A stretch of DNA of 64,000 nucleotides from an uncultured Rhodospirillaceae bacterium. Its GTDB lineage: Bacteria > Pseudomonadota > Alphaproteobacteria > Ferrovibrionales > Ferrovibrionaceae. Of the stretch, positions 1-21,931 are shown piece after piece (position 1 is the stretch's first letter; every line of letters begins with the position of its first letter). The stretch covers positions 7,702 through 71,701 of the forward strand of contig CAYSCA010000002.1 in assembly GCA_964429465.1 (NCBI GenBank), in the 5' to 3' direction. The notes under the pieces were generated by a model. The model searched no databases. It had not been told where the DNA came from and saw only the letters and a list, made by a program, of their open reading frames with translations. Made by a program: the position numbers and the translations under genes.

Positions 1-599
1 CACAGATTCAGCCGGGCCAGGGCGAAGTCCGCGACGCCGCCATCCTCCATGTCGACATCCGCGGCTTCACGCCGCTTTCGACCCGGCTTACGCCGGATGA
101 CCTCATGCTGCTGCTCGCCGATTACCAGGCGCGCATGGTGGCGGCAATTCACGCCCAGGGCGGCAGCGTCGACAAGTTTCTCGGCGACGGCATCCTGGCC
201 TCGTTCGGAGCGGCCCGGCCGAGTACGACTTACGCGGCCGATGGCCTGCGCGCAGTCCATGCGCTGAAACAGGCGGCGGAATCCTGGAATGCCGAACGCG
301 CCACCGCGGGGGCGGAGCCGGTGCGGATCGGCGTCACCCTGGCAGCGGGGGCCGTCATTTTCGGCGCGGTCGGAGATGCCTCGCGGCTGGAATATACGGT
401 GATCGGCGATGCCGTAAATCTCGCCGCCAAACTGGACAAGCAATGCAAGGTCGAAAGCTGTTTCGGCCTGGCTTCCGCCGAGACGCTGGCCCTGGCGCGG
501 GCGCAAGGCTACGAGCCGCCCGCCCATATCGAGATCCGCCGCGGGCGTCAGGTGGATGGCGTCCCCGATCCGGTCGATCTGGCGATCATCGAACCCTAG
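1..599 (+). CDS. class III adenylate/guanylate cyclase, C-terminal catalytic domain (5' end outside window)
   Basis: Frame is open from base 3 with no stop. Translation 'AILHVDIRGFTPLSTRL...KFLGDGILASFG...YTVIGDAVNLAAKL' matches class III cyclase catalytic motifs. TAG at 597-599. Confidence 0.8.
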   Translation, partial: QIQPGQGEVRDAAILHVDIRGFTPLSTRLTPDDLMLLLADYQARMVAAIHAQGGSVDKFLGDGILASFGAARPSTTYAADGLRAVHALKQAAESWNAERATAGAEPVRIGVTLAAGAVIFGAVGDASRLEYTVIGDAVNLAAKLDKQCKVESCFGLASAETLALARAQGYEPPAHIEIRRGRQVDGVPDPVDLAIIEP

Positions 600-1765
600 C
601 GGTAGGGGTCGGCAGCGTCGCGCAGCCCGTCGCCGAAGAAGTTGAAGGCCAGCACCACGATGATAACCGGGATGGCCGGCGCCATCAGCCAGGGATAGAG
701 CGCCACGACATTGATGTTCTGCGCCTCGTTCAGCAGAACGCCCCAGGAGGTTATCGGCGGGCGCAATCCCAGGCCAAGAAAGGAAAGCGCGGTTTCGCCA
801 AGGATCATGGTCGGGATCGACAGCGTCGCCGAGGCAATCAGATGGCTCATGAAGCTGGGCAGCAGGTGTCGCCCGATGATCCGGCCGGGCGAGGCGCCCA
901 TCAGCTGGGCCGCGACGGCGAAATCCTCCTCGCGCAGGGCCAGCAGCTTGGAGCGCACCGCCCGCGCCAGGCCCGGCCAGTCCAGCAGGCCCAGGATGAT
1001 CGTGATGCCGAAATAGACCAGGATCGGCGACCAGGTGACCGGCAGGGCGGCTGACAAGGCCATCCAGAGCGGCAGTTCCGGCAGGCTGCGGATCAGTTCG
1101 ATCAGACGCTGGATCAGGTTGTCGACCCAGCCGCCGTAATAGCCGGAAATTCCGCCCAGCACGATCCCGATCAGAAAGCTGATCGCGATGCCGAGCAGGC
1201 CTACCGTCAGCGAGATGCGCGTGCCGTAAACGATGCGGGAGAAAATATCGCGGCCCAGGCGATCAGTCCCGAGCAGGTAGAAATGACCGCCCTCCGCCGG
1301 GCAGACGAAATGGAAGCGCATCGGCACCATGCCCCACAGATCATAGGCATCGCCCTGGCAGAAGAAGCGCAGGGGATGAATGCGTGAGGTGTCGGCAGTG
1401 TATTCCCGCTTCAGGGTTTCCGTGTTCATACGGAAGCGCTGACCATAGACAAAAGGCCCGATGAACTCGCCTTCATGAAAGAGGTGTATCTCGTGCGGCG
1501 GCGCGTAGATTGCCCGGGGGTTCCTGGTCTGAAGCCCATAGGGTGCGATGAATTCCGAGCAGAGCGTCGAGGCATAGATCAGCAGCAGGATCACGCCGCT
1601 CCATACGCCGAGGCGATGGCGACGGAACTTCCACCACATCATCCTCCACTGCGAGGCGCGGTAATAGCCCTCCTGCTCGGGCGTCATGGCTTCGATCGAA
1701 TAAGGATCGAAGGGTGCGCCGCTCACCCAGTGTTCGAGCCGGCCGGATTCGCTTTGCCGATTCAT
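596..1765 (-). CDS. ABC transporter permease, peptide/opine type (DppC/YejE-like)
   Basis: 389-aa multi-TM ORF with permease core 'SLTVGLLGIAISFLIGIVLGGISGYYGGWVDNLIQR'. Start overlaps the upstream stop (ATGA, 1762-1765). Confidence 0.85.
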   Translation of the reverse strand: MNRQSESGRLEHWVSGAPFDPYSIEAMTPEQEGYYRASQWRMMWWKFRRHRLGVWSGVILLLIYASTLCSEFIAPYGLQTRNPRAIYAPPHEIHLFHEGEFIGPFVYGQRFRMNTETLKREYTADTSRIHPLRFFCQGDAYDLWGMVPMRFHFVCPAEGGHFYLLGTDRLGRDIFSRIVYGTRISLTVGLLGIAISFLIGIVLGGISGYYGGWVDNLIQRLIELIRSLPELPLWMALSAALPVTWSPILVYFGITIILGLLDWPGLARAVRSKLLALREEDFAVAAQLMGASPGRIIGRHLLPSFMSHLIASATLSIPTMILGETALSFLGLGLRPPITSWGVLLNEAQNINVVALYPWLMAPAIPVIIVVLAFNFFGDGLRDAADPYR

Positions 1766-2787
1766 TTCGCCTGGCCTCCCGTCAGGCGGATTCGCGGGTC
1801 AAGCCAGGCCAGCAGGATGTCGGAAATCAGCATGCCGAAAACGGTCAGCACCGCAAGAAACATCAGGAACGATCCGGCCAGATACTGATCGAGCGACTGC
1901 AGGGCGCCGAGCAGCATCGGGCCGGCGGTGGGCAGGCTCATCACGACCGAAACGATCACCGATCCCGACACCACCGACGGCAGCAGGTTGCCGATATCCG
2001 CAATGAACGGGTTCAGCGCCATGCGGATCGGGTATTTGATCAGCAGCCGCATCGGCGGCACGCCTTTGGCGCGTGCCGTCGTGACATACTGTTTCTGCAG
2101 TTCATCCAGCAGGTTTGCGCGCAAGCGCCGGATCATCGCCGCCGTGCCGGAGGTACCGATCACGATCACCGGAACAGCCATATGTGCGAACAGAGACTGG
2201 ATTTTCTTCCAGTTCCACGGCGCATCGATCAGCTCGGGATCGACCAGGCCGCCCATGCTGACGCCGAACCAGACATTGACATAGTAGAGCAGGACCAGCG
2301 CCAGCAGGAAATTCGGTGTGGCCAGGCCGATATAGCCGAAGAGGGTGAAGCCATAATCGCCCCAGGAATACTGCCGGGTCGCCGAATAGACGCCGATCGG
2401 AAACGCCACAATATAGATGAAGAGGATGGTGAAGAGATTGATGATGGCGGTCATCACCAGGCGGTCGCCGATCAGCTCGCCGACCGGACGGTTGTATTCG
2501 AACGACCAGCCCCAATCGCCCTGCATCAATCCGGACAGGCCATTCGGGCCAGGCCAGAAGCCCATCCAGATCGCGTATTGCTCGAGCAGGGGCCGGTCGA
2601 GGGCATATTGCCTGCGCAGGAATTCCGCGCGCTCCAGTGCGGAGCTGTCGCCCTGGGCGCGCAGTTCGGCGATCTGGTTGCTGAGATAATCTCCGGGCGG
2701 CAGTTTGATGATGAGGAATATCAGGAGGCTGATGATCAGCAGCGTCGGGATCATCAGCAGCAGGCGGCGCGCAAGATACATCAACAT
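1762..2787 (-). CDS. ABC transporter permease, peptide/opine type (DppB/YejB-like)
   Basis: 341-aa multi-TM ORF. N-terminus 'MLMYLARRLLLMIPTLLIISLLIFLII' is typical of DppB-family permeases. Confidence 0.85.
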   Translation of the reverse strand: MLMYLARRLLLMIPTLLIISLLIFLIIKLPPGDYLSNQIAELRAQGDSSALERAEFLRRQYALDRPLLEQYAIWMGFWPGPNGLSGLMQGDWGWSFEYNRPVGELIGDRLVMTAIINLFTILFIYIVAFPIGVYSATRQYSWGDYGFTLFGYIGLATPNFLLALVLLYYVNVWFGVSMGGLVDPELIDAPWNWKKIQSLFAHMAVPVIVIGTSGTAAMIRRLRANLLDELQKQYVTTARAKGVPPMRLLIKYPIRMALNPFIADIGNLLPSVVSGSVIVSVVMSLPTAGPMLLGALQSLDQYLAGSFLMFLAVLTVFGMLISDILLAWLDPRIRLTGGQAK

Positions 2788-2802
2788 CGGGTCGGCCTTG
2801 TC

Positions 2803-4704
2803 TTACGGGCGCAGCCAGAAGGTTTCAGGCCTGTAGATGCCGATGAACGCCCCCGGATCCCAGTTGAATATTCCTTCCTTCGGAATATTGGCCAGCTTTT
2901 TGTTGATCACGATCGGCTGAAACACGCCGCTGACCACACCGATCGTGAAGGTCTGGTCGGCGTGGATCGACAGCATGCGATGCCAGATCCGTTCGCGCTC
3001 CGCCGTATCGTCGGCATCCAGCCAGGTCTGGAACAGATCGAACAATTCGCGCGCGACCGGCATATCGATCGGTTCGCCGGATTGTCCGCCCGTCTCATAC
3101 CACTGGCCCCATTTCGGCCATTGCAGGCCGTATTGCGAGGTCGGCGCCAGCTCGTTGGGGATGGTTTCGGGCCTAGCCAGGCCATTCTCCAGCCCGGTCC
3201 AGACCGACATCATCGCCTCTCCGGAGAAGATCCGGTTGCGCACGATGTCGCGCTGGCTCGGCTTGGCGAACAGCTTGACCCCGATATTTGCCCAATTCTC
3301 GCCGATCAGTTCCAGGATGTCGGTCTGTTCGGTATCCTCGCCGGCCGTCTCGACGACGATTTCCAGAGGTCGCCCGTCGGGGAGCAGGCGGATGCCATTG
3401 CCATCACGTTTGGTCAGGCCGAGCTGGTCCAGCAGCCGGTTCGCAGCGGCCGGGTCAAAGGTCGCATTCTTGGTCTGGTATTCCGGCCGGAACAGCGGGC
3501 TGCTGTTCAGCACGGTGTTGTTCGATTCTATCGCCAGGCCAAAGAACAGCGTCTCGTTGATCGCCTGACGATCGATCGCAAGCGACAGCGCCCGCCGGAA
3601 GTCGGCTTTCCGCATCAGGCTGCGCCAGGTTGGATCGTTACAATTCAAGTTCGGAAACAGCGCGAAATGCGAGCCTTTGGCGGTGCGCCACAGCAGCGTC
3701 TTGTAGCCCGCGCGTTTCTCGTTTTCCTTCAGGAAGGTGAAATTGTTGAAGGTTATGGTGCGGAACTGGAGGTCGACCTCGCCGGCGCCGGCTTTCGCGG
3801 CGATCAGCTTGCTGTCGGCCTGGGTCAGCACGATGCGGTCGATATAAGGCAACTGCCGGCCATTGCTGTCGATGCGATGGTAGTAGGGGTTGCGCTGCGC
3901 CAGGAAGCGGATGGCAGGCGGTCGCGTGGCGATGACCCACGGATCGAGCGACGGCAGATCCGGGTTGTCCGCCTCATACATGTTGTCGACCCGATTATGC
4001 AGGGCAGCCCAGTTGCGCCGCTTCGAGGCGGCGACTTCCCGCGCCAGCGCCTCCGGATCGGCGTATTTCACATGGAATTTCTTCATGTAATGGGCGGGGC
4101 GGTAGATGTAGAGTGGCGCCGCGCCGGCCAGCCGAGGCAGGAAATAGGGGTTCCGCTTGCTCCACTCGTAACGGACGGTAAGCTCGTCGGGAAAGCTCAC
4201 CTTCGGCGGTTCGCCATCCACCAGCAGCGCGATCGGCGGGCCTGACGGGCTGAGCTCCTTGTTGTTGGCCACATCTTCCCAGTAATAGCGGAAATCCTCT
4301 GCCGTAAACGGATGGCCATCCGACCACTTATGGCCCCGACGCAGGTGGAAGGTGAAAATCCGCTCGTCCTGGACGGAATAGGATTCCACAAGATCCGGAA
4401 CGATCTCGAAGGATTGGTCATAGACGACCAGTCGCGTATACCCGATCACGCTGAGCAGCCGCGTATCGCGCGCGCGGCCGATCAACGTCCGCAATTCCCC
4501 GCCGGACCGGCCGGCCTCTGCGGGCGCGGTATAGCTGACGATCAACGGCTGTTGCGGTACGCGCTGTTCCACGGGAGGAAGCCGTCCCCCCGCGACCTCG
4601 GCCTCCAGCGCGGGCGTTTCCTGCAAGTCTGCCGGCTGCGCGAAGGCATCGAAGCCTGCGACCAGCAGGGCACAGCAGAAGATGAGGCGATACATGCGTC
4701 TCAT
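2803..4704 (-). CDS. ABC transporter substrate-binding protein, family 5 (YejA-like size)
   Basis: 633-aa ORF with signal peptide '[23 protein letters not shown]' and a long family-5 binding-protein body. ATGA overlap with the upstream ATPase gene at 4701-4704. Confidence 0.85.
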   Translation of the reverse strand: MRRMYRLIFCCALLVAGFDAFAQPADLQETPALEAEVAGGRLPPVEQRVPQQPLIVSYTAPAEAGRSGGELRTLIGRARDTRLLSVIGYTRLVVYDQSFEIVPDLVESYSVQDERIFTFHLRRGHKWSDGHPFTAEDFRYYWEDVANNKELSPSGPPIALLVDGEPPKVSFPDELTVRYEWSKRNPYFLPRLAGAAPLYIYRPAHYMKKFHVKYADPEALAREVAASKRRNWAALHNRVDNMYEADNPDLPSLDPWVIATRPPAIRFLAQRNPYYHRIDSNGRQLPYIDRIVLTQADSKLIAAKAGAGEVDLQFRTITFNNFTFLKENEKRAGYKTLLWRTAKGSHFALFPNLNCNDPTWRSLMRKADFRRALSLAIDRQAINETLFFGLAIESNNTVLNSSPLFRPEYQTKNATFDPAAANRLLDQLGLTKRDGNGIRLLPDGRPLEIVVETAGEDTEQTDILELIGENWANIGVKLFAKPSQRDIVRNRIFSGEAMMSVWTGLENGLARPETIPNELAPTSQYGLQWPKWGQWYETGGQSGEPIDMPVARELFDLFQTWLDADDTAERERIWHRMLSIHADQTFTIGVVSGVFQPIVINKKLANIPKEGIFNWDPGAFIGIYRPETFWLRP

Positions 4705-6605
4705 GCGACCAGATCCCGCAACTCGGCATTGTCGGCGGCGCGCACGAGATGGCCATTGCCGATCTCGATCATGCGCGGCCGGGTTGAACCGCTGATGGTG
4801 AATGGCTGCGGCCAGGCGGCCGGGTTGGAAGCCTTGCCCTCCATGAGAAGGCGAAGATCCAGGCGGCTGCTCGGGTCCGGTTTCGGCACCGCCGAAAGCA
4901 GCGCCTTGGTGTAGGGATGGACAGGATTCGAGAACAGCGCTTCACGCGGTGCGATCTCGACCAGACGGCCGGCGCACATGACGGCAATACGGTCGGCGAT
5001 ATAATCCACCACGGCGAGATTGTGGGAGATGAACAGATAGGTCAGCCCAAGCTCCTTCTGCAGATCCTTCAGCAGGTTCAGAATCTGCGCCTGGATCGAG
5101 ACATCGAGCGCCGAGACCGGATCATCGCAGATCAGCAGGTCTGGCTGCAGGGCCAGAGCGCGGGCGATGCCAATGCGCTGCCGCTGGCCGCCCGAGAAGG
5201 AATGCGGGTAGCGGCGCATGAAGCGGGCGTCCAATCCAACCAGGGTCATCAGCTCCTTCACCCGCTCGAACCGCTCGTCATCGTCACCAATGCCATGGAT
5301 CACCATCGGCTCGGAGATGATGTCCAGCACCGTCATGCGCGGATTGAGCGACGAGAAGGGGTCCTGGAAGATGAACTGCACCTTGCGGCGATAGGCGAAG
5401 AGATCCTCGTCCTCCAATGTCAGGACGTCTGTCATCTGCTCACCATCATGGAACCGGATGGCGCCGCTGTCGGGCTTGAGGGCGCGAAGGATGAGCTTGC
5501 TGGCGGTCGTCTTGCCGCAGCCGGATTCGCCGACCAGTCCGAGGCACTCGCCGCGATTGATCGTGAAGCTGACATCATCGACGGCCAGAATGCGGGTCGA
5601 TTGCTGCCCGCCAAAGAGCCCGCCCTTGCGCAGGGTGAAGCTTTTGCTGACATGATCCACCTGCAGCAGCGGTTCGCCGACCGCGCCGGCGCTGCGCGGC
5701 CTGTTGCGCAGCAGGCCGCCGACTTCGGCCTTGATCTCGCGGATCGGGATCAGCCTTTCGCCCGGCTTCATGTCGAAGCGGGGCACGGCATTGAGCAGGG
5801 CGCGCAGATAGGAGTGGCGGGGATCGCGGAAGATGTCGTCGAGCGTGCCCCGCTCCATCACCTCGCCGTGATACATCACAACGATCTCATCAGCCATGTT
5901 GGCAACGACGCCAAGGTCGTGGGTGATCATCAACACGGCCATGCCGAGTTCGGCCTGCAGGTCCTTGATCAATTTCAGGATCTGCGCCTGGATGGTTACG
6001 TCGAGGGCCGTCGTGGGCTCATCGGCAATCAGCAGGGCCGGCCGGCAGACGAGCGCCATGGCAATCATGGCACGTTGCCGCAATCCGCCCGAGAGTTCGA
6101 AGGCATAGGTCTTCATCGCCCGTTGCGGGTCGGGGAAGCCGACCAGTCGCAGCATCTCGGTAGCGATTTCCCGGCCCTCGGCGGTACTCGATCTGCGATG
6201 CAGATGCAGGGATTCGGTGACCTGATCCCCGATCGTGTGGAGCGGGCTCAGCGAGGTCATCGGTTCCTGGAATATGATGGACATCCGCCCGCCCTGGAGG
6301 TCGCGCATCGCGGCGCTGCGCGGATCCAGCGAGGCGATGTCGATCGGGTCGGCCGGCGTTAGCGGATCGAAGAACCGGATGCTGCCGCCGGCTATCCGCG
6401 CGATGCGCGGCAGAATACCCATGATGCTCTGGCTGACGACCGATTTACCCGATCCGGACTCGCCGACCAGGGCAACTGTTCGGCCCTGAGGGATGCGGAA
6501 GCTGACGCCATTGACAGCCTTGATCAGGCCTTCGGGCAGCGTGAAATGGACGTGCAAGTCGTCGATTTCGAGGACATTTCCGGTCACGGCCGTTCCTCGT
6601 GCCAT
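4701..6605 (-). CDS. ABC transporter ATP-binding protein, fused double ATPase (YejF/DppDF-like)
   Basis: 634 aa with two complete NBDs. Walker A 'GESGSGKS' and 'GESGCGKT', signatures 'LSGGLRQR' and 'FSGGQRQR', Walker B 'LLIADEP' and 'LLICDDP'. Confidence 0.9.
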
Positions 6606-7114
6606 TGTCCGGCATCGGTGAGCAGCCGGGTGGCATTGGCGCGCGTCGACGCACTGACCGCAATCCCGTTCCGGTCGGCCGCCGCGAGGGCCTGCTGAAC
6701 CAGATGCGGAAAGCCGCTCAGGTTGCTGTCGACCCGCAGGCGCGCCCTGTGTCCTTCCGCCCTGTGCCCTTCAATGGTCAATTGCAGCCATCCCTCGCTC
6801 CGATCGCGGCGTGTCGAATAGAACCGCAGGCCGATACCTGTAATATCCGACCACGGCATGACCGTCCGACGACGCTCGAACCCCCACCGGTTGTGCGATG
6901 CGATGCCTGAAGGGTCGAGTTCGATCTCGATCTGCTGACGCCACAAAGTGATGGCGCCTAGCCAGACAAAAAGCAGGCTCAAGCCGGTCAACAGGGCAAA
7001 AATGACAGATTGGGGCGCGGCAAACAACAGCAGTCCGAGGCAGGCAAGCAGCCCCAGGCCGGACCGCAGATAGTCGGGCCACAGGCGGGAAGCAGGATAA
7101 TGCAGGAGAGTCAT
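6584..7114 (-). CDS. small membrane protein, function unknown (2 TM helices plus a soluble, possibly PH-like domain)
   Basis: 176-aa ORF. Hydrophobic spans 'GLGLLACLGLLLFAAP' and 'FALLTGLSLLFVWLGAITLW'. Overlaps both neighbours (7111-7114 ATGA; 22 nt with the ATPase gene). Confidence 0.5.
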   Translation of the reverse strand: MTLLHYPASRLWPDYLRSGLGLLACLGLLLFAAPQSVIFALLTGLSLLFVWLGAITLWRQQIEIELDPSGIASHNRWGFERRRTVMPWSDITGIGLRFYSTRRDRSEGWLQLTIEGHRAEGHRARLRVDSNLSGFPHLVQQALAAADRNGIAVSASTRANATRLLTDAGQWHEERP

Positions 7115-9077: not shown

Positions 9078-9082
9078 CGCCC

Positions 9083-10800: not shown

Positions 10801-10803
10801 GGC

Positions 10804-12039: not shown

Positions 12040-12067
12040 AGTCACTGAATGAAGGGGGATACGACTC

Positions 12068-13471: not shown

Positions 13472-16126
13472 GTGGAGAAGAATCTTTATCGTTTCATCCT
13501 GAAGCACAGTCTAAGGCAGCAGGTCATCATCGTCCTGCTCTCGGTCGCGTCCTTCATCCCCTATTACTATTACCTGAGCATGCCCAAGGCGATCGTTAAC
13601 CAGGGCATCGAGGGGAAGGATGTCGGTTTCCCGGTCGACCTGCTCGGGTTGGGCTGGGTGAGCCTGGATCATACCGGCTATCTGCTGGTCCTGTGTTTCG
13701 GCTTCCTTGTCCTGGTGCTGGTGCAGCAGGGCTTCAAATACGCGATCAACCTGTTCCAGGGGATTGCCGGCGAACGGATGCTGCGCCGGCTGCGATACAT
13801 CCTGTATGCCCAGATCCTCCGTTTTCCGCTGCCGACCTTTCGCCGCACCAGCCAGGGCGAGATCATTCCGATGGTGATCGCCGAGGTGGAACCCATCGGC
13901 GGTTTTATCGGCGAAAGCTTCGCGCTGCCGATCTTCCAGGGCGGCATGCTGCTGGTGATCTTCACCTTCCTGCTGATCCAGAATCCTTTGATGGCCCTTG
14001 CGGCCGTCTCGCTCTACCCGATCCAGTTCTACTTCGTCCCGAAGATGCAGGCCAAGGTGCGCGCCCTGGGCCGCGAACGGATCAAAAACCAGCGCCGGAT
14101 GTCCGATCGCATCGGCGAGTCCATCAGCGGCATCACCGAATTGCACGCCCATGATGCCTCGAACCGGATGCTCGCCGAATTTTCCCGCAGGCTGAGCGTG
14201 AGTTACTGGATCAGGGTCGAGATCTTCCAGCGTAAATTCATGATCAAGTTCCTGAATAACTTCATTCAGCAGCTTGGCCCGTTTTTCTTCTATACGATCG
14301 GCGGCTATCTGGTCATCAAGGGCAGCATGGATGTCGGTACGATCGTCGCCGCCGTGAATGCGCACAAGGAGATGGCGGCTCCCTGGAAGGAACTGCTCAA
14401 TCACTACCAGACGCGCGAAGACGTGAAGCAGAAATACGAGCAGGTGATCAGCCAGTTCGAGCCGGCCGGCATGCGCTCTCCCGACGACCAGCATGTCGAA
14501 CCCGAGGACGCTCCGCCGTTGTCTGGTGCCATCGTCGCGTCGGGCGTCGCATTGTTCGATGACCAGGGGCATCCGGTGCTCGAAGGTGTGAACCTGACTA
14601 TCCCCTGGCCGGCGCGTGTGGCGATCGTCGGCGACAATGGTCGCGACGAGTTCCTTCAGTTGCTGGCCCGCACGCTGGCGCCTTCCAGAGGAAAGGTGAC
14701 CATCAACAATCACAATCTCGCCGATCTGCCGGAAACGGTGACCGGACGGCGGCTGGCCTATGTCGGCCCCAGTGCCTATATCTTCAACACCACGCTCGGC
14801 GACAATCTTCTTTTCGGCCTGCGTCATCGGCCGCTGGTCGCGCGCGAGCTGACAGACGAGACATTGCGCCGCTACGAGCGTGAGCGGGCGGAAGCCCTTG
14901 CATCGGGTAATTCCGATCTTGATCCTGATGCCGACTGGACCGATTACGCCGCTGCCGGGGTGCAGAATCGCGACGAACTGCGCAACGCTGCCATTTCAGC
15001 GCTGCAGGTCGCGGCTTTCGACGAGGATGTCTACCAGATCGGCATGCGCGGCACGATCGATCCAGACCGCTATCCTGACGTCGCAGAACGGGTGCTGGAG
15101 GCGCGCCGGACATTCCGCAGCCGCCTGCGCGATGGCGAGCTGGCCGACCTGGTCGAGAGCTGGGATCCCAGGCGCTACAACAGCAACGCCACCGTCGCAG
15201 AGAATTTGATGTTCGGCACGGCGCGGAACGGCATCTATCACGAGGACAATCTTGCGCGCGACCCGCATGTGCTGAGCGTTCTCGATCAGGTTGGATTGCG
15301 GCGGCGCTTCCTTGAGATCGGTCACGAGGTAGCCAGCACGATGGTGGAACTGTTCGCCGACCTGCCTCCGGACCATGAATTCTTCCAGCAATTCAGCTTC
15401 ATCTCCTCGGAGGACCTGCCCGAGTACAAGGACCTGCTCCTTCGCGCCAAACCCGAGTCCCTGGATCAGCTGGCGGAGCCCGACAGGGTGCGGCTCATGT
15501 CCTTGCCGTTCAAGCTTGTCCTGGCCCGTCACCGCCTGGGGCATTTCAACGAAGATGAGCGCGAGGCCATTCTGCGGGGACGCGAGATCTTCGCCCAGAC
15601 CTTGCCGGAGGCACGGCGCGACGCGATCGCGTTCTTTGACCCGGAGTATTTTACCGTCTCGTCCAGCATCGTCGACAATATCCTGTTCGGCCGGGTTGCC
15701 TACGGGCAGGCCCAGGCGCAGGAAAAGATCGGCCATGTCATCGCAGATGTCGTCGAGCAGCTGAAGCTGCGCGAGCCGATCATCGAGATCGGCCTGCAGT
15801 TCGAGGTCGGCATCGCAGGCGCGCGCTTGAGCGCTGCGCAGCGGCAGAAGCTCGCGATCGCCCGGGCAATGCTCAAGCGGCCCGACTGGCTGATGCTGTC
15901 GGAATCCACGGCGGCATTGGACCCGCGCAGTCATGCTGCGGTCATCCGCGCCGTCACCCAGGCACGCACTTTAAGCGGTCTGATATGGTCATTGCAGCGG
16001 GTTGCCGACTGCGAGGAATTCGACACGATTCTCGTTCTGGAGAATGGACGGGTGATCCAGATGGGTTCCTTTGCCGACCTGTCGGAGCGACAGGGGCGGT
16101 TCAAAGACATGCTGGTGCCGGCATGA
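13472..16126 (+). CDS. ABC exporter-fold protein (N-terminal 6-TM ABC_membrane domain plus atypical, degenerate, expanded NBD)
   Basis: 884 aa with a GTG start after GGGGAAAGG. The TMD covers aa 1-330. Walker A is replaced by 'GDNGRDEF', signature is 'LSAAQ', Walker B is 'WLMLSE', H-loop is 'SLQR'. About 400 aa separate Walker A from the signature. Confidence 0.8.
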   Translation: MEKNLYRFILKHSLRQQVIIVLLSVASFIPYYYYLSMPKAIVNQGIEGKDVGFPVDLLGLGWVSLDHTGYLLVLCFGFLVLVLVQQGFKYAINLFQGIAGERMLRRLRYILYAQILRFPLPTFRRTSQGEIIPMVIAEVEPIGGFIGESFALPIFQGGMLLVIFTFLLIQNPLMALAAVSLYPIQFYFVPKMQAKVRALGRERIKNQRRMSDRIGESISGITELHAHDASNRMLAEFSRRLSVSYWIRVEIFQRKFMIKFLNNFIQQLGPFFFYTIGGYLVIKGSMDVGTIVAAVNAHKEMAAPWKELLNHYQTREDVKQKYEQVISQFEPAGMRSPDDQHVEPEDAPPLSGAIVASGVALFDDQGHPVLEGVNLTIPWPARVAIVGDNGRDEFLQLLARTLAPSRGKVTINNHNLADLPETVTGRRLAYVGPSAYIFNTTLGDNLLFGLRHRPLVARELTDETLRRYERERAEALASGNSDLDPDADWTDYAAAGVQNRDELRNAAISALQVAAFDEDVYQIGMRGTIDPDRYPDVAERVLEARRTFRSRLRDGELADLVESWDPRRYNSNATVAENLMFGTARNGIYHEDNLARDPHVLSVLDQVGLRRRFLEIGHEVASTMVELFADLPPDHEFFQQFSFISSEDLPEYKDLLLRAKPESLDQLAEPDRVRLMSLPFKLVLARHRLGHFNEDEREAILRGREIFAQTLPEARRDAIAFFDPEYFTVSSSIVDNILFGRVAYGQAQAQEKIGHVIADVVEQLKLREPIIEIGLQFEVGIAGARLSAAQRQKLAIARAMLKRPDWLMLSESTAALDPRSHAAVIRAVTQARTLSGLIWSLQRVADCEEFDTILVLENGRVIQMGSFADLSERQGRFKDMLVPA

Positions 16127-16148
16127 CGACTGCGAGGGAGAAGCAAAG

Positions 16149-16610
16149 ATGAGCCTGAACGAAGAAGTCGAATTGCTGCGGCGTATTCCGCTTTTTGCCA
16201 AGATCGAGCCCTCGAAACTCAAGCTGCTTGCCTTCACCAGCCAGCGGTTGACCTATAAACCTGGCGATGTGCTGTTTCGGCAGGGTGACCCGGGAGATGC
16301 CGCTTTCGTCATTATCGGCGGCGAGGCCAATGTCGTGGTTGATACGCCTGGCGGACCGCTTACCGTCGCTCATCTCAAGCAGAATGACTTTGTCGGCGAG
16401 ATCGCTATTTTGTGCGATGTTCCGCGAACGGCAACAGTTTCGGCCGCCAGCGAGGTTACCACCCTGCGGATCGAGAAAGACCTCTTCTTCCGGCTGATCA
16501 ACGACTTCCCCCAGATCGCCGTGGAGATCATGCGCGTTCTGGCGCAGCGACTGGAGCGCACCACCGCCGATCTCAGAGCCCTCTCTGCCCGGGTGCAAAA
16601 CCCCGCATGA
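16149..16610 (+). CDS. cyclic nucleotide-binding domain protein (stand-alone CNB domain, no HTH)
   Basis: Start at ATG 16149 after GAGGGAG ('MSLNEEVELLRRIPLFAKIEP...GDVLFRQGDPGDAAFVIIGGE...FVGEIAILCDVPRTATV'). The 153 aa leave no room for a DNA-binding domain. Confidence 0.85.
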   Translation: MSLNEEVELLRRIPLFAKIEPSKLKLLAFTSQRLTYKPGDVLFRQGDPGDAAFVIIGGEANVVVDTPGGPLTVAHLKQNDFVGEIAILCDVPRTATVSAASEVTTLRIEKDLFFRLINDFPQIAVEIMRVLAQRLERTTADLRALSARVQNPA

Positions 16611-17095
16611 GCCGGCTGGACAGCTTCATCCGGCGTCTTGAGGCGCAGCGCATTGTGCTGAACTGGGCGGTGGAGCAGATCGCAGGGCAGCCGGGGATCA
16701 TACTCGAACTGGGCCTCGGGAATGGCCGTACCTACGACCATCTGCGCGAGAAACTGCCGGGTCGGACCATTTTTGCTTTCGATCGCGCCATCAACGCCAA
16801 TCCGCGCTCGGTTCCGCCGGAGCAATACATGGTGTTGGGTGATTTTGTCGAAACCCTGCCGGCTTTCGCGCAGCAGCATCCTTCCGGGGCTGCGCTGATC
16901 CACAGCGATGCCGGACTTGGCGATCCGGAAGCCAATGCACGCCAGGTCCGGATGCTCAGTGATCTGATCCCGCCACTGGCAGCATTGGGAGCGCTGATCA
17001 TAAGCGATCAGAAACTCGTACATCCGGCGCTGCAGCAGCAACCATTGCCGCCCCTTGTCAATCCGGACAGGTATTTCATCTATCGGCGGACCTGA
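16607..17095 (+). CDS. class I SAM-dependent methyltransferase (small)
   Basis: Start at ATG 16607 forms an ATGA overlap with the CNB gene stop. Motif I 'IILELGLGNGRT'. 162 aa. Confidence 0.65.
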   Translation: MSRLDSFIRRLEAQRIVLNWAVEQIAGQPGIILELGLGNGRTYDHLREKLPGRTIFAFDRAINANPRSVPPEQYMVLGDFVETLPAFAQQHPSGAALIHSDAGLGDPEANARQVRMLSDLIPPLAALGALIISDQKLVHPALQQQPLPPLVNPDRYFIYRRT

Positions 17096-17135: not shown

Positions 17136-19268
17136 ATGAAACCGCAGAGGAAACGGATCGCCATTCTGGGTGGCGGCGTCGCCGCGTTGACCAGCGCCTT
17201 CTATCTGGCCAGCCGGCCCGGTGCTGCCGAACTATACGACATCACGATCTATTCGCTCGGCTGGCGGCTGGGCGGTAAATGTGCCACCGGGCGCAATCTG
17301 GATATGGCATACCGGATCGAGGAACACGGCATCCACGGTTTCCTTGGATCCTACTACAACACATTGTCCCTGATGACGCGGACCTATGACATGCTTGGCC
17401 GCAAGCCGGGAGAGCCGCTGGCGAGCTTTGAGGAGGCCTTCTATCCGATCGACTCTATTGTGTGCTGGGAATTCCGCGACAGCCGCTGGGTGAGCTGGCC
17501 GATCACCATGCCGCGCAACAGCCTGAAACCCTGGGAGCCGGAATCCCTTCCGGAGCTGCGGGACTGGATAAAGGCACTGATTACGTTCATGGGCGGGCTG
17601 TTCGAGCATCATGCCCGAAACATGTCCACCGGCATGGATATGGGCCTGGCGGGCCGGCTCATGAAGCGCCTCCTGAATGAGGCGGAATCGGTGATCGAGG
17701 GGCGTGGCCATGCTCTGCTGGAAGCGATCTGGCTGGGCTTCAAGCATGAGGCCGAGCGCCTGATGGAAGGCAACGATGCCCTGCGCCATCTGTACATGAC
17801 GCTGGATTACTTCCTGACCATTCTGCGCGGCGTTATCAAGGATGATGTGATCAACAAGGGTTTCGACCAGCTGGACGACGAGAATTTCTCGGACTGGTTC
17901 GCCCGTCACGGCGGATCGATGCTGACGATCTCCTCGCCGCTCAGCATGAATACGCCAAATCTGTCGTACCAGTACCCGGACGGCGATACCACGAGGCCGC
18001 CGCAGATGGCCGCCGGTGCATATCTGCACTGGACGCTTCGTGAATTTGCCTATCTGGGTTCCTTTGGCTGGCTGTTTGCCGCCGGCACCGGCGATACCGT
18101 TGTGGCGCCGCTTTACCTCGTGCTGAAGCGGCTGGGCGTGAAATTCGAGCTGTTCCACAAAGTGCGCGAGATCACCGCGGCAGGCAAATCCGTCGACGAG
18201 GTGGTCTTCGATATCCAGGCGACGCCGAAAGATCCCGCCAAAGGCTATGATCCGCTGATCGAGCTGCCGCTGCAGCAGTTCGGCGGCCGGAGCTTGCCGG
18301 TCTGGCCCGATCGCCCCCTCTACGACCAGCTGGTCGAAGGGGAGGCGATGAAGGCCGCCGGACCCGATATCGAATCCTACTGGTCGTCATGGAAGCCTGT
18401 TGCCGAAAAGCGACTCAAGGCCGGCCGCGACTTCGACACGGTGATCTGCGCGATCTCCATCGGCGCACTGCCGATCATTGCGCCGCGGCTGATGCAGGCC
18501 GATCCAAGATGGCCGGCCATGACCGAAGCGATCAAGACGGTGCAGACCCAGACGCTGCAGATCTGGATGAAGCGCACGCTCAAGGAGATGGGACTCCCAT
18601 TCGACTTCAAGAACTATGACCGGCTGATCGGCGCAACCTTCGTCAACCCGATCGACGGCGTGGCAGATTTCACCGATCTGATCCCGGTGGAAGCCTGGCC
18701 GGAAGACAACGCGCCCCGGTCGCTGCTCTATTTTTCCGGCGCCACGCCGCAATACGGCGCGCAACCTCCGTTCAGCGATCACGATTACCCCAAACGCGAA
18801 TATGCCCGGGTAAAATACCAGGCGCAGCAATATCTGCAGGCCAGCATGGGTATCCTGTTGCCGAAAGCGGTGACCAACGCCGTCAATCCGCCGGGAGATC
18901 AGATCGGATTCGACTTTTCCGAACTGGTTTGCCTGAAAAACGACGCAGCCACGTTAGGCGTGGCGCGGCTGGATCAGCAATTCTGGAAGCCGAATATCGA
19001 TCCCAGCGAACGCTACGTCACCTCGCCGCCGGGCAGCACCAAATACCGCCTGAAGGCCTGGGATTCCGGTTTCAGCAACCTCGTCCTGGCCGGCGACTGG
19101 ATCTATACCGGGCTGAATGTCGGCAGTTTCGAGGGGGCCTGTATGGGCGGCAAGCTGGCGGCGCACGCGATAGATCCTGAAGCGATGCCATTGCAATCGG
19201 TGTACGGTTACCCGCCGTCGCAGGGACGGCCGGCAGTGACTCCGGAGCCGGAGATCACACCAGCCTGA
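17136..19268 (+). CDS. FAD/NAD(P)-binding oxidoreductase (amine-oxidase / phytoene-desaturase-like), 710 aa
   Basis: ATG 17136 follows GGGAGGGGGG. Dinucleotide fold 'RIAILGGGVAALTSAFYLA'. C-terminal FAD motif 'LVLAGDWIYTGLNVGSFEGACMGG'. Confidence 0.75.
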   Translation: MKPQRKRIAILGGGVAALTSAFYLASRPGAAELYDITIYSLGWRLGGKCATGRNLDMAYRIEEHGIHGFLGSYYNTLSLMTRTYDMLGRKPGEPLASFEEAFYPIDSIVCWEFRDSRWVSWPITMPRNSLKPWEPESLPELRDWIKALITFMGGLFEHHARNMSTGMDMGLAGRLMKRLLNEAESVIEGRGHALLEAIWLGFKHEAERLMEGNDALRHLYMTLDYFLTILRGVIKDDVINKGFDQLDDENFSDWFARHGGSMLTISSPLSMNTPNLSYQYPDGDTTRPPQMAAGAYLHWTLREFAYLGSFGWLFAAGTGDTVVAPLYLVLKRLGVKFELFHKVREITAAGKSVDEVVFDIQATPKDPAKGYDPLIELPLQQFGGRSLPVWPDRPLYDQLVEGEAMKAAGPDIESYWSSWKPVAEKRLKAGRDFDTVICAISIGALPIIAPRLMQADPRWPAMTEAIKTVQTQTLQIWMKRTLKEMGLPFDFKNYDRLIGATFVNPIDGVADFTDLIPVEAWPEDNAPRSLLYFSGATPQYGAQPPFSDHDYPKREYARVKYQAQQYLQASMGILLPKAVTNAVNPPGDQIGFDFSELVCLKNDAATLGVARLDQQFWKPNIDPSERYVTSPPGSTKYRLKAWDSGFSNLVLAGDWIYTGLNVGSFEGACMGGKLAAHAIDPEAMPLQSVYGYPPSQGRPAVTPEPEITPA

Positions 19269-19323
19269 TACTGGTGGGCTCCTGCCGTGTTGGTTACCAT
19301 TCCGTGCTTTGGGGATTGAATTG

Positions 19324-20340
19324 ATGGGTGCGCCCGGGCCGCTGAATCTGCTGACTGATGTCGAAGGACTGGCTGTGGGCCATGCCGTCGATGAAAGGGT
19401 GCGGACAGGCGTTACCGTCATTCTGCCCGCTGGGCGCGCGGCCTGCTCGGTCGATGTCCGCGGCGGCGGATCGGGAACCCGCGAAACCGACCTGCTGCGG
19501 CCGGAAGCAGCAGCGCAAGCGGTCGACGCCATCTGCCTGGCTGGCGGATCGGCATTCGGCCTCGATGCCGCCGCCGGCATGATGCCATGGCTGGCCAGGC
19601 AGCGGCGCGGCTTCCAGGTGCAGGGCTTCACGGTCCCAATCATCCCGGCGGCGATTCTGTTCGACCTCCATAACGGCGGCGACAAAGACTGGGCCGACAA
19701 TCCGCCCTATCGGCGCCTCGGCCGGGAAGCATGCGAGAATGCCGCCGCGGGCGCCTTTGCACTCGGCAATGCCGGCGCCGGCTACGGAGCGGCCGCCGGC
19801 AGGCTGAAGGGCGGCCTTGGCAGTGCATCCTGGGTAGAAGCCGACGGGCTGGTGGTTGCTGCGCTGATGGCCGTCAATTCGGTGGGCAGCGTGCTGACGC
19901 CGGACAATGAGGGCTTCTGGGCGGCGCCCTACGAACAGAACGGCGAATTCGGGGGGCAGCCGATGGGCGCCAACCGCGGGAATCTGCCGCTTGGCGTTCC
20001 GCCGGAAGCGCGTATCGGCGGGCATACCTGCATCGGCGTTGTGGCCACTAATGCCCCGCTGGACAAAACCGCTCTTCGCCAGGTTGCCGCCATGGCCCAT
20101 GATGGCCTTGCCCGGTCAGTCCGGCCGGTCCATACGCCCTTTGACGGCGATACCATCTTTGCGCTGGCCACTGCTGCGTGGCAGGATGAGCGGGGCGATG
20201 ACGCCAGGCCCTGGCTGATCGCCAGAGTTGGCAGTATCGCCGCCGATTGTGTCGCGCGGGCCGTCGGGCGGGGTGTCTGGATGGCGGAGGGAATCGGCCA
20301 TCTGGGCTCGATCAGAGAGATGGGATTCAGAGGGAGCTGA
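19324..20340 (+). CDS. P1/S58 family peptidase (DmpA-type L-aminopeptidase/D-esterase)
   Basis: 'LLTDVEGLAVGHA...GVTVILP...GGGSGTRETDLL' is the typical DmpA family pattern. ATG 19324 is preferred over the TTG at 19309. Confidence 0.8.
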   Translation: MGAPGPLNLLTDVEGLAVGHAVDERVRTGVTVILPAGRAACSVDVRGGGSGTRETDLLRPEAAAQAVDAICLAGGSAFGLDAAAGMMPWLARQRRGFQVQGFTVPIIPAAILFDLHNGGDKDWADNPPYRRLGREACENAAAGAFALGNAGAGYGAAAGRLKGGLGSASWVEADGLVVAALMAVNSVGSVLTPDNEGFWAAPYEQNGEFGGQPMGANRGNLPLGVPPEARIGGHTCIGVVATNAPLDKTALRQVAAMAHDGLARSVRPVHTPFDGDTIFALATAAWQDERGDDARPWLIARVGSIAADCVARAVGRGVWMAEGIGHLGSIREMGFRGS

Positions 20341-20342
20341 CC

Positions 20343-21875
20343 ATGAACAACAAGATCATCGGGGCGATTGTCGCGATTGCAGTCGTCGCAGGTGGCGGCT
20401 GGTATTACATGCAATCCGGCGGGGAAGTGGCGCACGCGCCGAATGCCGCCCCGGCCAAGGATGATATCGTCATCGGAATGGCGCTTGAGCCGCCGGGGCT
20501 GGATCCGACTATCGCCCCCGCAGCGGCAATCGGCGAAATCACGCATCTCAATATCTTTGAGGGCCTGACCCGCATCCAGGAAAATGGTGAGGTTGCGCCG
20601 CTGCTGGCCGAGAGCTGGACTGTCTCGCCGGACATGATGACTTTTACCTTCAAGCTGAAATCCGGCGTCAAGTTCCAGGACGGCACCGCGTTCGATTCCG
20701 CCGACGTGAAATACTCGTTCGAGAAATATGCCGGCGAGAAGAGCACCAACAAGCGGAAGGCTGTTTTCACCAATATGGCCTCGGTGGAGGCGCCCGATGC
20801 AACCACTGTGGTCGTCACGCTGAAGAAGCCGGACCCAACCCTGCTGTTCAGCCTCGGCGAGAACACCGCCGTCATCACCGCGCCGGAATCCAGCGATACG
20901 AACGCGACGAAACCGCTCGGAACCGGCCCCTACAAGTTCGAAAGCTGGGTGAAAGGTGATTCGGTCACGCTGACCGCAGCCGATACCTACCGTGACAAAG
21001 GGGCCATCAAGATCAAGACGGCCAAGTTCCGCTTCATTTCCGATCCGGGCGCAATGGTAGCGGCGATGCAGGCCGGCGATATCGATGCGATCCCGATCGG
21101 CATCACCGGGGAGAACGTCGCGCAATTCGAGAAGGACAAGCGCTTCAAGGTCACTATCGGCTCCACCGAAGGCGAGACGATGCTGATCATGAACAACAAG
21201 CGCAAGCCGCTGGATGACGTGCGGGTACGGCGCGCCATCAGCTATGCGCTGGACCGGAAGGCGATCATTGATGGCGTCAATTCCGGCTACGGCAAGCCGA
21301 TCGGCAGCCACTTCCCGCCGCATGATCCGGCGTATGTCGACCTGACCGGCATGTATCCCCATGACCCGGCCAAGGCCAAGGCGCTATTGCAGGAGGCCGG
21401 CATCAGCAATCTTGAACTGACACTGAAATTGCCGCCGCCGGCCTATGCCCGCCGCGGCGGAGAAATTATCGCAGCCATGCTGGCGGAGGTCGGGATCACC
21501 GCGAAAATCGAGAATGTCGAATGGGCCCAGTGGCTCGATACGGCGTTCAAGAACAAGAACTTCGACCTGACCATCGTCAGCCATGTCGAGCCGAATGACT
21601 ACGTCAAGTACGCCGATGTGAACTACTACTATCAGTATGACAGCAAGGAAGTGCAGGACCTGATCGCCAAGGCAAATTCCACGCTGGATAAAGCCGAGCG
21701 CACCAAGGCTCTGCAGCAGATGCAGCGCAAGATTGCCGAAGATGCGGTCAACGGCTTTCTCTATAACCTGCCCCGTATCGGCGTCTACAAAGCCGGTCTG
21801 GCCGGCTTCTGGGTCAACGCACCGATCTTCGTGAACGATCTGGCGGCGGTGTCCTGGCAGCAGGCCGGCAGCTGA
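20343..21875 (+). CDS. ABC transporter substrate-binding protein, family 5 (orphan, no adjacent permease)
   Basis: ATG 20343 follows GAGGGAG. Signal/anchor 'MNNKIIGAIVAIAVVAGGGWYY' and a family-5 body. Confidence 0.85.
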   Translation: MNNKIIGAIVAIAVVAGGGWYYMQSGGEVAHAPNAAPAKDDIVIGMALEPPGLDPTIAPAAAIGEITHLNIFEGLTRIQENGEVAPLLAESWTVSPDMMTFTFKLKSGVKFQDGTAFDSADVKYSFEKYAGEKSTNKRKAVFTNMASVEAPDATTVVVTLKKPDPTLLFSLGENTAVITAPESSDTNATKPLGTGPYKFESWVKGDSVTLTAADTYRDKGAIKIKTAKFRFISDPGAMVAAMQAGDIDAIPIGITGENVAQFEKDKRFKVTIGSTEGETMLIMNNKRKPLDDVRVRRAISYALDRKAIIDGVNSGYGKPIGSHFPPHDPAYVDLTGMYPHDPAKAKALLQEAGISNLELTLKLPPPAYARRGGEIIAAMLAEVGITAKIENVEWAQWLDTAFKNKNFDLTIVSHVEPNDYVKYADVNYYYQYDSKEVQDLIAKANSTLDKAERTKALQQMQRKIAEDAVNGFLYNLPRIGVYKAGLAGFWVNAPIFVNDLAAVSWQQAGS

Positions 21876-21893
21876 TCGGTCTGCTCTGAATGT

Positions 21894-21931
21894 AAAAAAA
21901 AAGCCCGCCGGGGAGACCCGGCGGGCTTTTT
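21894..21931. terminator. bidirectional intrinsic terminator
   Basis: A9 run, perfect 10-bp GC stem gcccgccggg / cccggcgggc with loop gaga, then a T5 run. Lies between convergent genes ending at 21875 (+) and 21950 (-). Confidence 0.85.

Follow-up and report, generated by a model that had tools for sequence, protein, structure and literature searches.

What can a cell do with an ATP-binding cassette (ABC) exporter fold that lacks its ATPase motifs, encoded back to back with an operon for glycosyltransferases (GTs) and an importer? The question is raised by a divergent locus in a 64,000-nucleotide stretch of DNA from an uncultured Rhodospirillaceae bacterium of the Ferrovibrionaceae (assembly GCA_964429465.1, contig CAYSCA010000002.1, positions 7,702 to 71,701), hereafter called the window. 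An earlier note, made from the letters alone, had described two gene arrays running outward from one intergenic region and together covering 596–21931, and had proposed that they make, export and re-import a small glycosylated metabolite or glycoconjugate, possibly under cyclic-nucleotide (cNMP) control. We found that 14 of these genes (596–17095) form a real gene cluster, common to hundreds of Alphaproteobacteria including nitrogen-fixing rhizobia. The reading that we prefer, with a rough probability of 0.4, is that a cytoplasmic oligosaccharide or glycoside containing glucosamine or N-acetylglucosamine (GlcN/GlcNAc) would cross the membrane via the ABC-fold protein without ATP hydrolysis, under cNMP control, and would then be recaptured by the importer.

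Gene calls were made from a listing of open reading frames (ORFs) and Pfam/NCBIfam scans, with start codons refined; all genes listed earlier for both arms were present at essentially the same coordinates, as was the divergent intergenic (promoter) region of 177 bp at 13295–13471. Genes of the minus-strand arm mostly overlap or abut within a few bases, the widest gap being 28 bases, and on the plus strand the start of the last conserved gene, encoding a small SAM-dependent methyltransferase of 162 aa (Methyltransf_17, PF12692, 3.1e-55; 16607–17095), overlaps the stop of the preceding one.

When GTDB species, each represented by one genome, were scanned with the help of sequence motifs, at least 566 tblastn-confirmed relatives of the 884-aa ABC-like protein (13472–16126, plus strand) were recovered. 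Its closest named homologues are from Ferrovibrio spp. (72–78% identity), in agreement with a Ferrovibrio-like source of the DNA. Synteny was then scored by tblastn with all window proteins in 84 loci, comprising the best 80 of these ≥566 loci and four plasmid or chromid loci; the 10-kb flanks limit the counts for distal genes. The gene for a stand-alone cNMP-binding protein (16149–16610, plus strand) adjoined the ABC-like gene in 81 of the 84 loci. Among the minus-strand genes, a RedB-like GT of family GT4 (10804–12039) was found in 66 loci, a RedA-like GT of the GT-B fold (12068–13294; 59–74% identity) in 63, a second GT4 (9661–10800) in 62, and a second GT-B (7917–9077; homologues 40–51% identical) and a histidine phosphatase (9083–9664) in 56 each. 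The importer ATPase (4701–6605) was present in 51 loci, a family CE4 deacetylase (7111–7920) in 50, a small membrane protein with two transmembrane helices (2-TM protein, 6584–7114) in 44, always in the same position, and the methyltransferase in 45 (a flank-limited count).

Order and divergent orientation as in the window recurred in Sneathiella, Oceanibacterium, Azospirillum, Thalassobaculum, Nisaea, Inquilinus and many metagenome-assembled genomes. The genes also stayed together where their order was rearranged, as in nine loci, those of Mesorhizobium pWSM1497, R. gallicum, R. leguminosarum pRL11 and S. meliloti pSymB among them. Flanking genes varied by lineage (peptidase C26, FtsK and LolA in many loci; cyoABCD or cyclases in others), so that the co-location of the unit is not mere inherited synteny. 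Carrier taxa were marine, soil and symbiotic, with many non-symbionts. Thus the ABC-like, cNMP-binding, GT and importer genes were clustered across dozens of genera, and the earlier note, which had named a failure of the two arms to be co-conserved as grounds for giving up its proposal, was borne out on this point. Its divergent two-arm unit is shorter than it had proposed, ending at 17095 instead of 21875, since the three genes that follow on the plus strand (described below) occurred in none of the 84 loci and, in this arrangement, only in Ferrovibrio.

By its sequence and predicted structure, the 884-aa protein is an ABC exporter fold of type IV without functional ATPase motifs. Its transmembrane domain (TMD) matched ABC_membrane (PF00664, 2.9e-21) with the six helices of an exporter, followed by a split ABC_tran nucleotide-binding domain (NBD). 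An AlphaFold2 (AF2) model (pLDDT 80, pTM 0.72) was matched by Foldseek to TmrAB, TM287/288, Atm1 and PCAT1 (E ~1e-17), and the best NCBIfam match was MsbA. In the window protein Walker A reads VGDNGRDEF (cf. GxxGxGK[ST]), the signature RLSAAQ (cf. LSGGQ) and Walker B WLMLSES (cf. hhhhDE), and the H-loop His is replaced by Gln. Across 80 family members, a canonical Walker A, Walker B Glu and LSGGQ were each found in one and were degenerate in the other 79, which extends to the whole family the dead ATPase motifs that had been noticed in the window. The replacements were patterned, with K/R then D/E in the P-loop and S/N for the Walker B Asp. Conservation was inverted compared with ordinary ABC exporters: 31% of TMD columns were at least 90% conserved, cf. 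9% in the Walker A/Q-loop part, which makes the TMD the best-conserved region.

The NBD is interrupted by an insert of ~275 aa (residues ~452–726) with the invariant motifs DWxDY, NATxxENxxFG, ELFADLPPDHEFFQQ and LPFKxxxARHRLG. This insert is a tandem duplication of the segment from the Q-loop to the helical subdomain (hhalign of repeat 2 vs repeat 3: 96% probability, E = 5e-9), and a Q-loop-proximal pattern, xTxx[DE]N[LI]xFG, occurs three times (residues 438–449, 570–582 and 727–740), marking a threefold repeat of the helical subdomain. Most loci encode no partner half-transporter, and a canonical one lies nearby only in the rhizobial variants; hence a homodimer would have two dead sites, and heterodimerisation with such a partner was rejected as an explanation for the family. 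TM287/288 and TmrAB share the TMD and NBD fold and also carry non-canonical ATP-site residues; in contrast to these and to CFTR, here every ATP-site motif is non-canonical, a partner is mostly missing and a duplicated insert splits the NBD. An active exporter, as the export step of the earlier proposal implied, should not be assumed for a protein of this kind.

The 153-aa protein encoded next to it consists of a single cNMP-binding domain (PF00027, 1.4e-20) and a C-helix, with no DNA-binding or enzymatic domain. The R. leguminosarum homologue is annotated as a CRP/FNR transcription factor, a class that was rejected for the window protein, in which no helix-turn-helix is detected and CRP models match the N-terminal part only (46 vs 266 bits). 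The phosphate-binding cassette (G83, E84, R93, T/S94 and A95) was kept in 70–74 of 74 homologues, so that the protein likely binds a cyclic nucleotide. Lacking an output domain of its own, it has to work by way of another protein, for which the ABC-like protein, its near-obligate gene neighbour, would be the obvious candidate. No fusion of the two proteins was found among the 120 closest ABC-like homologues or in the 84 loci, apparent long fused ORFs being out-of-frame artefacts. An ABC exporter gene paired with a cNMP-binding-domain gene is also a feature of the NHLP/Nif11 bacteriocin exporters (TIGR03796, TIGR03797 and TIGR03896), to which matches were weak and far below cut-offs (37 vs 161 bits for TIGR03896); unlike the protein described here, those exporters keep their ATPase motifs, and the locus encodes no peptidase domain, precursor peptide or HlyD partner.

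Class III cyclase genes adjoined the locus in 19 of the 84 loci and do so in the window, where the 3' part of an adenylate/guanylate cyclase gene (1–599, plus strand; Guanylate_cyc match), whose start lies off the window, is convergent with the importer operon and overlaps the stop of its last permease gene with its own stop. The full-length protein, encoded in a near-identical contig, has 451 aa with a Guanylate_cyc domain. The window cyclase and that of the rhizobial locus are 29% identical in the catalytic domain only and are not orthologous, nor are the cyclases beside the various loci all orthologous to one another. Frequent adjacency of cyclases, together with matches of the 153-aa protein to the cNMP part of Pycsar effector models (1e-14 to 1e-7), recalls anti-phage defence of the Pycsar kind, in which a cyclase and a cNMP-binding protein would act together with an effector in the membrane. 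However, the matches cover the generic cNMP-binding domain only and no TIR or pore-forming effector domain is present, the cyclases are of class III (Guanylate_cyc) and not of the Pycsar type, the genes show a symbiosis phenotype (see below), and from order to order the locus keeps its place among biosynthetic genes, whether on a chromosome or on a chromid. We rejected a defence function of this type, the probability of which is close to negligible.

Loss of the ATPase motifs throughout the family would also suit a pseudo-transporter receptor, which would sense a ligand (possibly the glycan) by binding it in its conserved TMD but would translocate nothing, and which together with the cNMP-binding protein and a cyclase would form a signalling unit regulating glycan synthesis or uptake. 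Consistent with such a role, the patterned Walker replacements suggest a nucleotide site that is retained but altered, the cNMP-binding protein brings no other output domain, and in about 11 of the 84 loci the ABC-like, cNMP-binding and cyclase genes stand as a self-contained trio without GT genes. A complete exporter-like TMD has nevertheless been retained, and the GT-rich majority architecture would otherwise encode no export component, though it does encode an importer; we regard a pure receptor as quite unlikely. A broader proposal is that the 884-aa and 153-aa proteins constitute a new kind of bacterial membrane device, in which an ABC exporter fold would have abandoned ATP hydrolysis to serve as a cyclic-nucleotide-gated and energy-independent conduit, flippase or receptor for a specific glycan; rhizobia would need this device in nodules. 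The cNMP-binding protein, seated on the NBD insert, would then replace ATP as the switch, as a counterpart of CFTR-type gating. CFTR is an exporter fold regulated through the cAMP pathway; here, in place of phosphorylation, a cNMP-binding protein encoded by its own gene would exert the control. We put this device forward tentatively, as a doubtful proposal in its full form.

The substrate of such a path would be made by four GTs, none of which has a predicted membrane anchor. Both GT4 proteins carry a Glycos_transf_1 domain (6.9e-27 and 2.7e-31) that places them in this retaining family. The 379-aa protein (9661–10800) matched BshA, MshA and PimB' in the Protein Data Bank (PDB), and the 411-aa RedB homologue (10804–12039, start refined; also Glyco_transf_4) resembled EpsE, WcaL and TviE below cut-offs; overall the two proteins were nearest BshA, MshA, PimB'/PimA and sucrose-phosphate synthase (SPS), far below the equivalog cut-offs. 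The 386-aa GT-B protein (7917–9077; RedAh homologue, GT28/GT1 superfamily, Glyco_tran_28_C) is a remote relative of MurG and of small-molecule UDP-glycosyltransferases, which its family profile matched at 1e-10 to 1e-6. The divergent 408-aa GT-B (12068–13294; RedA homologue, Glyco_tran_28_C, MJ1255/VC2487-like), encoded by the first gene of the minus operon, found no solved relative in a sequence-profile search of the PDB. Against the MurG equivalog TIGR01133 the score was 24 vs 250 bits, and matches were limited to the C-terminal nucleotide-sugar domain. The GxGHxxR N-terminal motif, which had been pointed out in the two GT-B proteins, is present in the consensus of both families.

Three further genes of this arm lie among or beside the GT genes. 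The 193-aa histidine phosphatase of branch 1 (9083–9664; His_Phos_1, 1.3e-37) has the catalytic RH(A) and the second His. The 176-aa 2-TM protein (6584–7114), recognised in related loci by alignment, has no Pfam match and consists of two N-terminal transmembrane helices and a soluble domain of ~100 aa. The 269-aa CE4 protein (7111–7920) also had no Pfam match, the gathering score of PF01522 not being reached, although one of its homologues carries PF01522 and homologues are named polysaccharide deacetylase in the source records. The family had no significant hhalign match to the window's own PF01522 protein, and a sequence-profile search of the PDB reached E = 0.13 at best. Because these searches were weak, the fold was settled by the AF2 model (pLDDT 96), for which the top 30 and more Foldseek matches were CE4 deacetylases or esterases (3qbu, 5lgc, 2c71, 2c1i and 2y8u; TM 0.5–0.65), and the NodB-like deacetylase that had been predicted for this gene was confirmed at the level of the fold. 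Conserved WWRDDD, HGxxHxNH, PPWNR, DPxDW and THHL motifs hold the invariant residues D35–D37, H87/H91, P138–R142, D182/W186 and H224–H225, which were assigned as CE4 motifs by inspection. No signal peptide was seen in the sequence, so the enzyme would work in the cytoplasm, like NodB.

The mycothiol (MshA/MshA2/MshB) and bacillithiol (BshA/BshB) routes likewise combine cytoplasmic enzymes of the GT4, phosphatase and de-N-acetylase kinds. Unlike these, the locus has a CE4 and not an LmbE deacetylase, has no cysteine ligase and encodes, in addition, three more GTs, a methyltransferase, an importer and the exporter-like protein; the GT4 scores were 74 vs 274 bits and 70 vs 462 bits against the equivalog cut-offs of these pathways, and a pathway of this type was rejected. 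The acceptor of the GTs could instead be a membrane lipid, such as diacylglycerol, a phospholipid or a polyprenyl carrier, whose glycosylated form the CE4 enzyme would convert into an amino-glycolipid, with the MsbA-like, ATPase-dead protein as an ATP-independent flippase or scramblase under cNMP control and the importer salvaging released head groups. Lipids are common acceptors among relatives of the GT28-like and GT4 enzymes, and matches below cut-off in NCBIfam and the PDB included MurG, PimA/PimB', alpha-monoglucosyl-diacylglycerol synthase and GlcNAc-phosphatidylglycerol synthase, just as MsbA led the NCBIfam matches of the ABC-like protein. A logic of GT, CE4 enzyme and flippase is known from HexSDF of C. 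difficile. In a Geminicoccaceae-like subset of the loci that hold the trio without GT genes, phospholipid-synthesis genes follow the cyclase: locus L064 (14898–20397) and similar ones, L071 and L080 among them, continue with psd, two CDP-alcohol phosphatidyltransferases, Usp, DedA/VTT and SPFH genes. This adjacency may reflect a link to membrane lipids or lineage synteny; it is confined to one related genome group and may be inherited. Moreover, the operon itself encodes an oligosaccharide-type importer with a binding protein, as would be expected for a ligand dissolved in the periplasm, a soluble phosphatase suits sugar-phosphate chemistry and the GTs have no membrane anchor, for which reasons we consider a glycolipid product possible but unlikely.

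The importer set is complete and of the family-5 (Opp/Dpp/Yej) type. It comprises, all on the minus strand, an OppC-type permease of 389 aa (596–1765; OptC-like; BPD_transp_1 and OppC_N), whose homologues in related loci are 63–74% identical, an OppB-type permease of 341 aa (1762–2787; OptB-like; BPD_transp_1 and BPD_transp_1_N), also co-located in related loci, a periplasmic substrate-binding protein of 633 aa with a Sec signal peptide (2803–4704; OptA-like; SBP_bac_5) and a GsiA/YejF-like ATPase of 634 aa (4701–6605; OptD-like; 611 bits) with two fused NBDs (ABC_tran twice, with oligo_HPY) and two canonical Walker A motifs. The binding protein aligned end to end with 5ipw (3.5e-89), SPH1118 (1.4e-79) and the alpha-galactoside binder MelB (7e-35), partially with chitin-oligosaccharide binders (1e-16), and with peptide binders over short stretches at 1e-9 or weaker. 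SPH1118 is a binder of pectin oligosaccharides (PMC9314435, PMC7055323). The ligand is probably an oligosaccharide, as it is for the nearest solved relatives with a stated ligand, and the peptide-type uptake suggested earlier is more probably oligosaccharide uptake.

Like other cluster C family-5 binding proteins (SPH1118, MelB and the chitin-oligosaccharide-binding protein), the 633-aa protein is periplasmic and accompanied by an Opp-type permease and ATPase set; unlike theirs, its gene lies inside a biosynthetic and not a catabolic operon. This bears on whether the locus is primarily an uptake pathway, in which the importer would take up an environmental oligosaccharide that cytoplasmic enzymes then deacetylate, dephosphorylate and re-glycosylate. 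The importer is indeed the largest and best-conserved block (57–74% identity), and relatives of the binding protein serve the assimilation of plant and chitin oligosaccharides (PMC9314435). Against salvage and remodelling, the locus encodes four GT-B enzymes of biosynthetic type, lacks the glycoside hydrolases, kinases and transcription factors with which catabolic loci are typically equipped, and occurs alike in marine, soil and symbiotic taxa. In planta, moreover, insertion sequencing (INSeq) showed that importer mutants gain fitness, cf. redB and pseudo-ABC mutants, which lose it. We judge an uptake pathway to be improbable.

The rhizobial homologues connect the locus to a phenotype. It lies on pRL11 of R. 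leguminosarum/johnstonii 3841, on p42e of R. etli CFN42 and on pSymB of S. meliloti. In strain 3841, where it was mapped by gene order and product names to pRL110046–pRL110056, the locus is an orthologous variant (36–65% identity) with the same genes clustered, although all on one strand. It comprises pRL110046 (the cNMP-binding protein, annotated FNR/CRP regulator), pRL110047 (the pseudo-ABC protein, annotated 'permease of ABC exporter'), redAh, redB, redA, optC, optB, optA, optD, cyaA and pRL110056 (a UDP-sugar dehydrogenase). Genes that the window lacks are found in the rhizobial variants at 288–2078 of locus L086 and at 18204–19058 and 21028–22191 of locus L002; they encode a canonical ABC half-transporter, an MBL-fold hydrolase, the UDP-sugar dehydrogenase and a DUF3095 protein, the last of which bears an adenylyl cyclase annotation in strain 3841. 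The variant of that strain has extra cyclases as well. According to the INSeq data of Wheatley et al. (preprint, 10.1101/2020.05.07.082560), both nodule bacteria and bacteroids depend on pRL110047, redB and pRL110056, whereas pRL110046 was classed as defective for the rhizosphere and as essential for nodules. A second study flagged pRL110056 for root colonisation (PMC11103875). Thus, genes of both arms share a nodule phenotype, which supports a common function. The paper on the Clr regulon of S. meliloti (PMC5498481) does not list the locus. Our literature search returned no paper on redA/redB in rhizobia or on a cluster of a cNMP-binding protein and an ABC exporter, so that close homologues of the set carry red and opt names in rhizobia but sit in no pathway characterised in that literature; the second outcome that the earlier note had named as telling against its proposal was thus not found there.

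Overall, the most economical interpretation is still the earlier one, of a product that the cell makes, exports and takes up again, perhaps controlled by a cyclic nucleotide, and it is strengthened by the cNMP cassette, the recurrent cyclases, the oligosaccharide-type binding protein and the shared nodule phenotype; oxidation and peptide trimming, which had been part of the same proposal, fall away. The four GTs would assemble a short GlcNAc-containing glycan in the cytoplasm, beginning on a phosphorylated acceptor from which the phosphatase would then remove the phosphate, a route suggested by the way in which GT4, phosphatase and deacetylase together recall the logic of MshA/MshA2, SPS/SPP and GpgS/GpgP. 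GlcNAc would be turned into GlcN by the CE4 enzyme, and the methyltransferase would decorate the product. The ABC-fold protein would pass it over the inner membrane without ATP hydrolysis, its conserved TMD acting as a facilitator or flippase, and the cNMP-binding protein would dock on the duplicated NBD insert and open or close the path in response to cAMP or cGMP from the nearby class III cyclases. The importer would recapture the periplasmic or extracellular oligosaccharide; the product would therefore behave as a retrievable extracytoplasmic glycan, be it a signal, a protectant or a periplasmic glycan.

Several points weigh against this scheme. Transport by a protein without ATPase motifs is an unproven proposal, and the contact between the cNMP-binding and ABC-like proteins was deduced from gene adjacency only. 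Product, acceptor and sugar donor are putative, every GT assignment lying below its equivalog cut-off, and the lipid acceptors often used by GT28 and GT4 relatives would favour a glycolipid. The trio without GT genes shows that function is possible without adjacent GT genes, rhizobia have the locus without the phosphatase and without the 2-TM protein, and redA, redAh, optB, optC and cyaA were neutral in the INSeq experiment (10.1101/2020.05.07.082560).

Two known alphaproteobacterial glycan systems come close to the proposed scheme. Export of cyclic beta-1,2-glucan by NdvA/ChvA likewise pairs an MsbA-like half-transporter with a periplasmic glycan made in the cytoplasm, and chvA/glucan-exporter models matched the ABC-like protein at 1e-26 to 1e-34, far below cut-off (92 vs 585 bits); in contrast to the present locus, the NdvA system has a canonical ATPase, relies on one giant GT84 synthase in place of four GT-B enzymes, and includes neither an importer nor a partner that binds cNMP. 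The Nod-factor core (NodC/NodB/NodIJ) of rhizobia resembles the locus in cytoplasmic oligosaccharide synthesis, a NodB-fold CE4 deacetylase and ABC-type export. It differs in that NodC is a processive membrane GT2 and NodIJ belongs to another ABC type with an active ATPase, and in having neither an importer nor a cNMP-binding protein, and the locus is found in many non-symbionts. The enzyme families are ordinary, and it is the combination of an ABC exporter that is dead throughout its clade and has a duplicated NBD insert, a stand-alone cNMP receptor and a putative make-and-retrieve glycan locus that was not found described in the literature searched.

ABC exporters are defined by ATP-driven transport, and a large, vertically conserved clade with dead motifs but a strongly constrained membrane domain shows, as if by an experiment of nature, which uses the fold may have once ATP is dispensed with; the near-obligate pairing with a cNMP receptor offers a concrete candidate switch. 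Class III cyclases number in the dozens in Alphaproteobacteria and especially in rhizobia, and their outputs are mostly obscure; here the locus offers a putative non-transcriptional cNMP effector tied to a cell-surface or secreted glycan. It may also encode an unrecognised symbiosis-relevant glycan, as the cNMP receptor, the pseudo-ABC protein and one GT of R. leguminosarum are needed in nodules. Carriers such as S. meliloti (pSymB) and R. etli (p42e) are genetically tractable.

The divergent intergenic region contains a semi-conserved motif, gaCTATGGCAca, at 13322–13333. Its consensus, gaCTATGGCAya, was found in 12–18 of 57 homologous divergent intergenic regions, eleven of which were located individually, ~30 nt upstream of the RedA-like start and 120–200 nt upstream of the ABC-like start, and could be a promoter element or a regulator site. 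No inverted repeat of the kind expected for a palindromic (CRP/Clr-like) operator was enriched among the 57 regions; the sole motif from that search was the non-palindromic CTATGGCA, present in a minority of them. An Rfam scan of window positions 1–24000 revealed no riboswitch or other known RNA except a tRNA-Arg, with sub-threshold matches on the terminator described below, and no Rfam element in 13295–13471.

Beyond the conserved unit, the plus-strand array continues with genes for a 710-aa flavoprotein (17136–19268), an S58/DmpA peptidase (19324–20340) and a second, orphan SBP_bac_5 binding protein (20343–21875), all identified by Pfam. The gaps are short, and the genes at 17136–21875 are therefore likely co-transcribed with the plus arm here; they also follow the methyltransferase gene in F. 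xuzhouensis. The flavoprotein family occurs in Betaproteobacteria as well, beside an unrelated Trans_reg_C/TPR regulator. Given the synteny counts, this stretch is lineage-specific, and the three proteins were rejected as members of the pathway, which removes from it the oxidation, the peptide trimming and the second binding protein that the first description had included. The orphan binding protein is GsiB/NikA/DppA-like, is encoded without permease or ATPase genes of its own next to the S58/DmpA peptidase, and might share the minus-arm importer. The array is closed by a bidirectional intrinsic terminator, correctly recognised before and now placed at 21896–21931, with a 15-bp GC-rich stem between an A-run and a T-run (-33.8 kcal/mol, z = -4.7).

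No priming phosphoglycosyltransferase, Wzx, Wzy or polysaccharide co-polymerase (PCP) gene was found in 596–17095 or in the related loci, and the earlier statement that the first three are missing holds within 596–21931. However, a complete Wzx/Wzy-type exopolysaccharide (EPS) locus begins 1.7 kb past the terminator and covers 23612–47242. It encodes a PCP/tyrosine kinase, a Bac_transf priming transferase, an NDP-sugar synthase and epimerase, two C-methyltransferase-type enzymes, WecG, a Wzx-like flippase, a deacetylase, an FkbM methyltransferase, a GT2, a GT4, Wzy, a beta-helix protein and PAP2. So close a set might suggest that the GT arm is an accessory to it, but an EPS neighbourhood within 10 kb was found in none of the 84 related loci, in F. 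xuzhouensis MFS and cyoA genes follow the locus in place of the EPS genes, and a tRNA-Arg(ACG) gene (23406–23482), exactly between the two loci, and the strong terminator separate them. A functional link was rejected on this synteny, and an accessory role is extremely unlikely. We treat the EPS locus as an independent neighbour and possibly an inserted island, with which the tRNA gene at the boundary and the absence of the EPS locus from this place in F. xuzhouensis are compatible. Within it, the 992-aa PCP carries a C-terminal isochorismatase domain, an unusual fusion, and two minus-strand ORFs of 325 and 744 aa (38746–41788) have no Pfam match.

Between the terminator and the tRNA gene lies a 445-aa ORF (21950–23287, minus strand) without a Pfam or NCBIfam match, which has a counterpart of 79% identity, likewise positioned, in F. 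xuzhouensis; as the opposite strand also holds an overlapping ORF of about this length, the coding strand was assumed from the F. xuzhouensis gene call. An MFS gene followed by cyoA(BCD) lies just past the locus both in F. xuzhouensis (L085, 20332–22655) and on R. leguminosarum pRL11 (L086, 21987–28740), a neighbourhood that is shared despite the large phylogenetic distance between the two.

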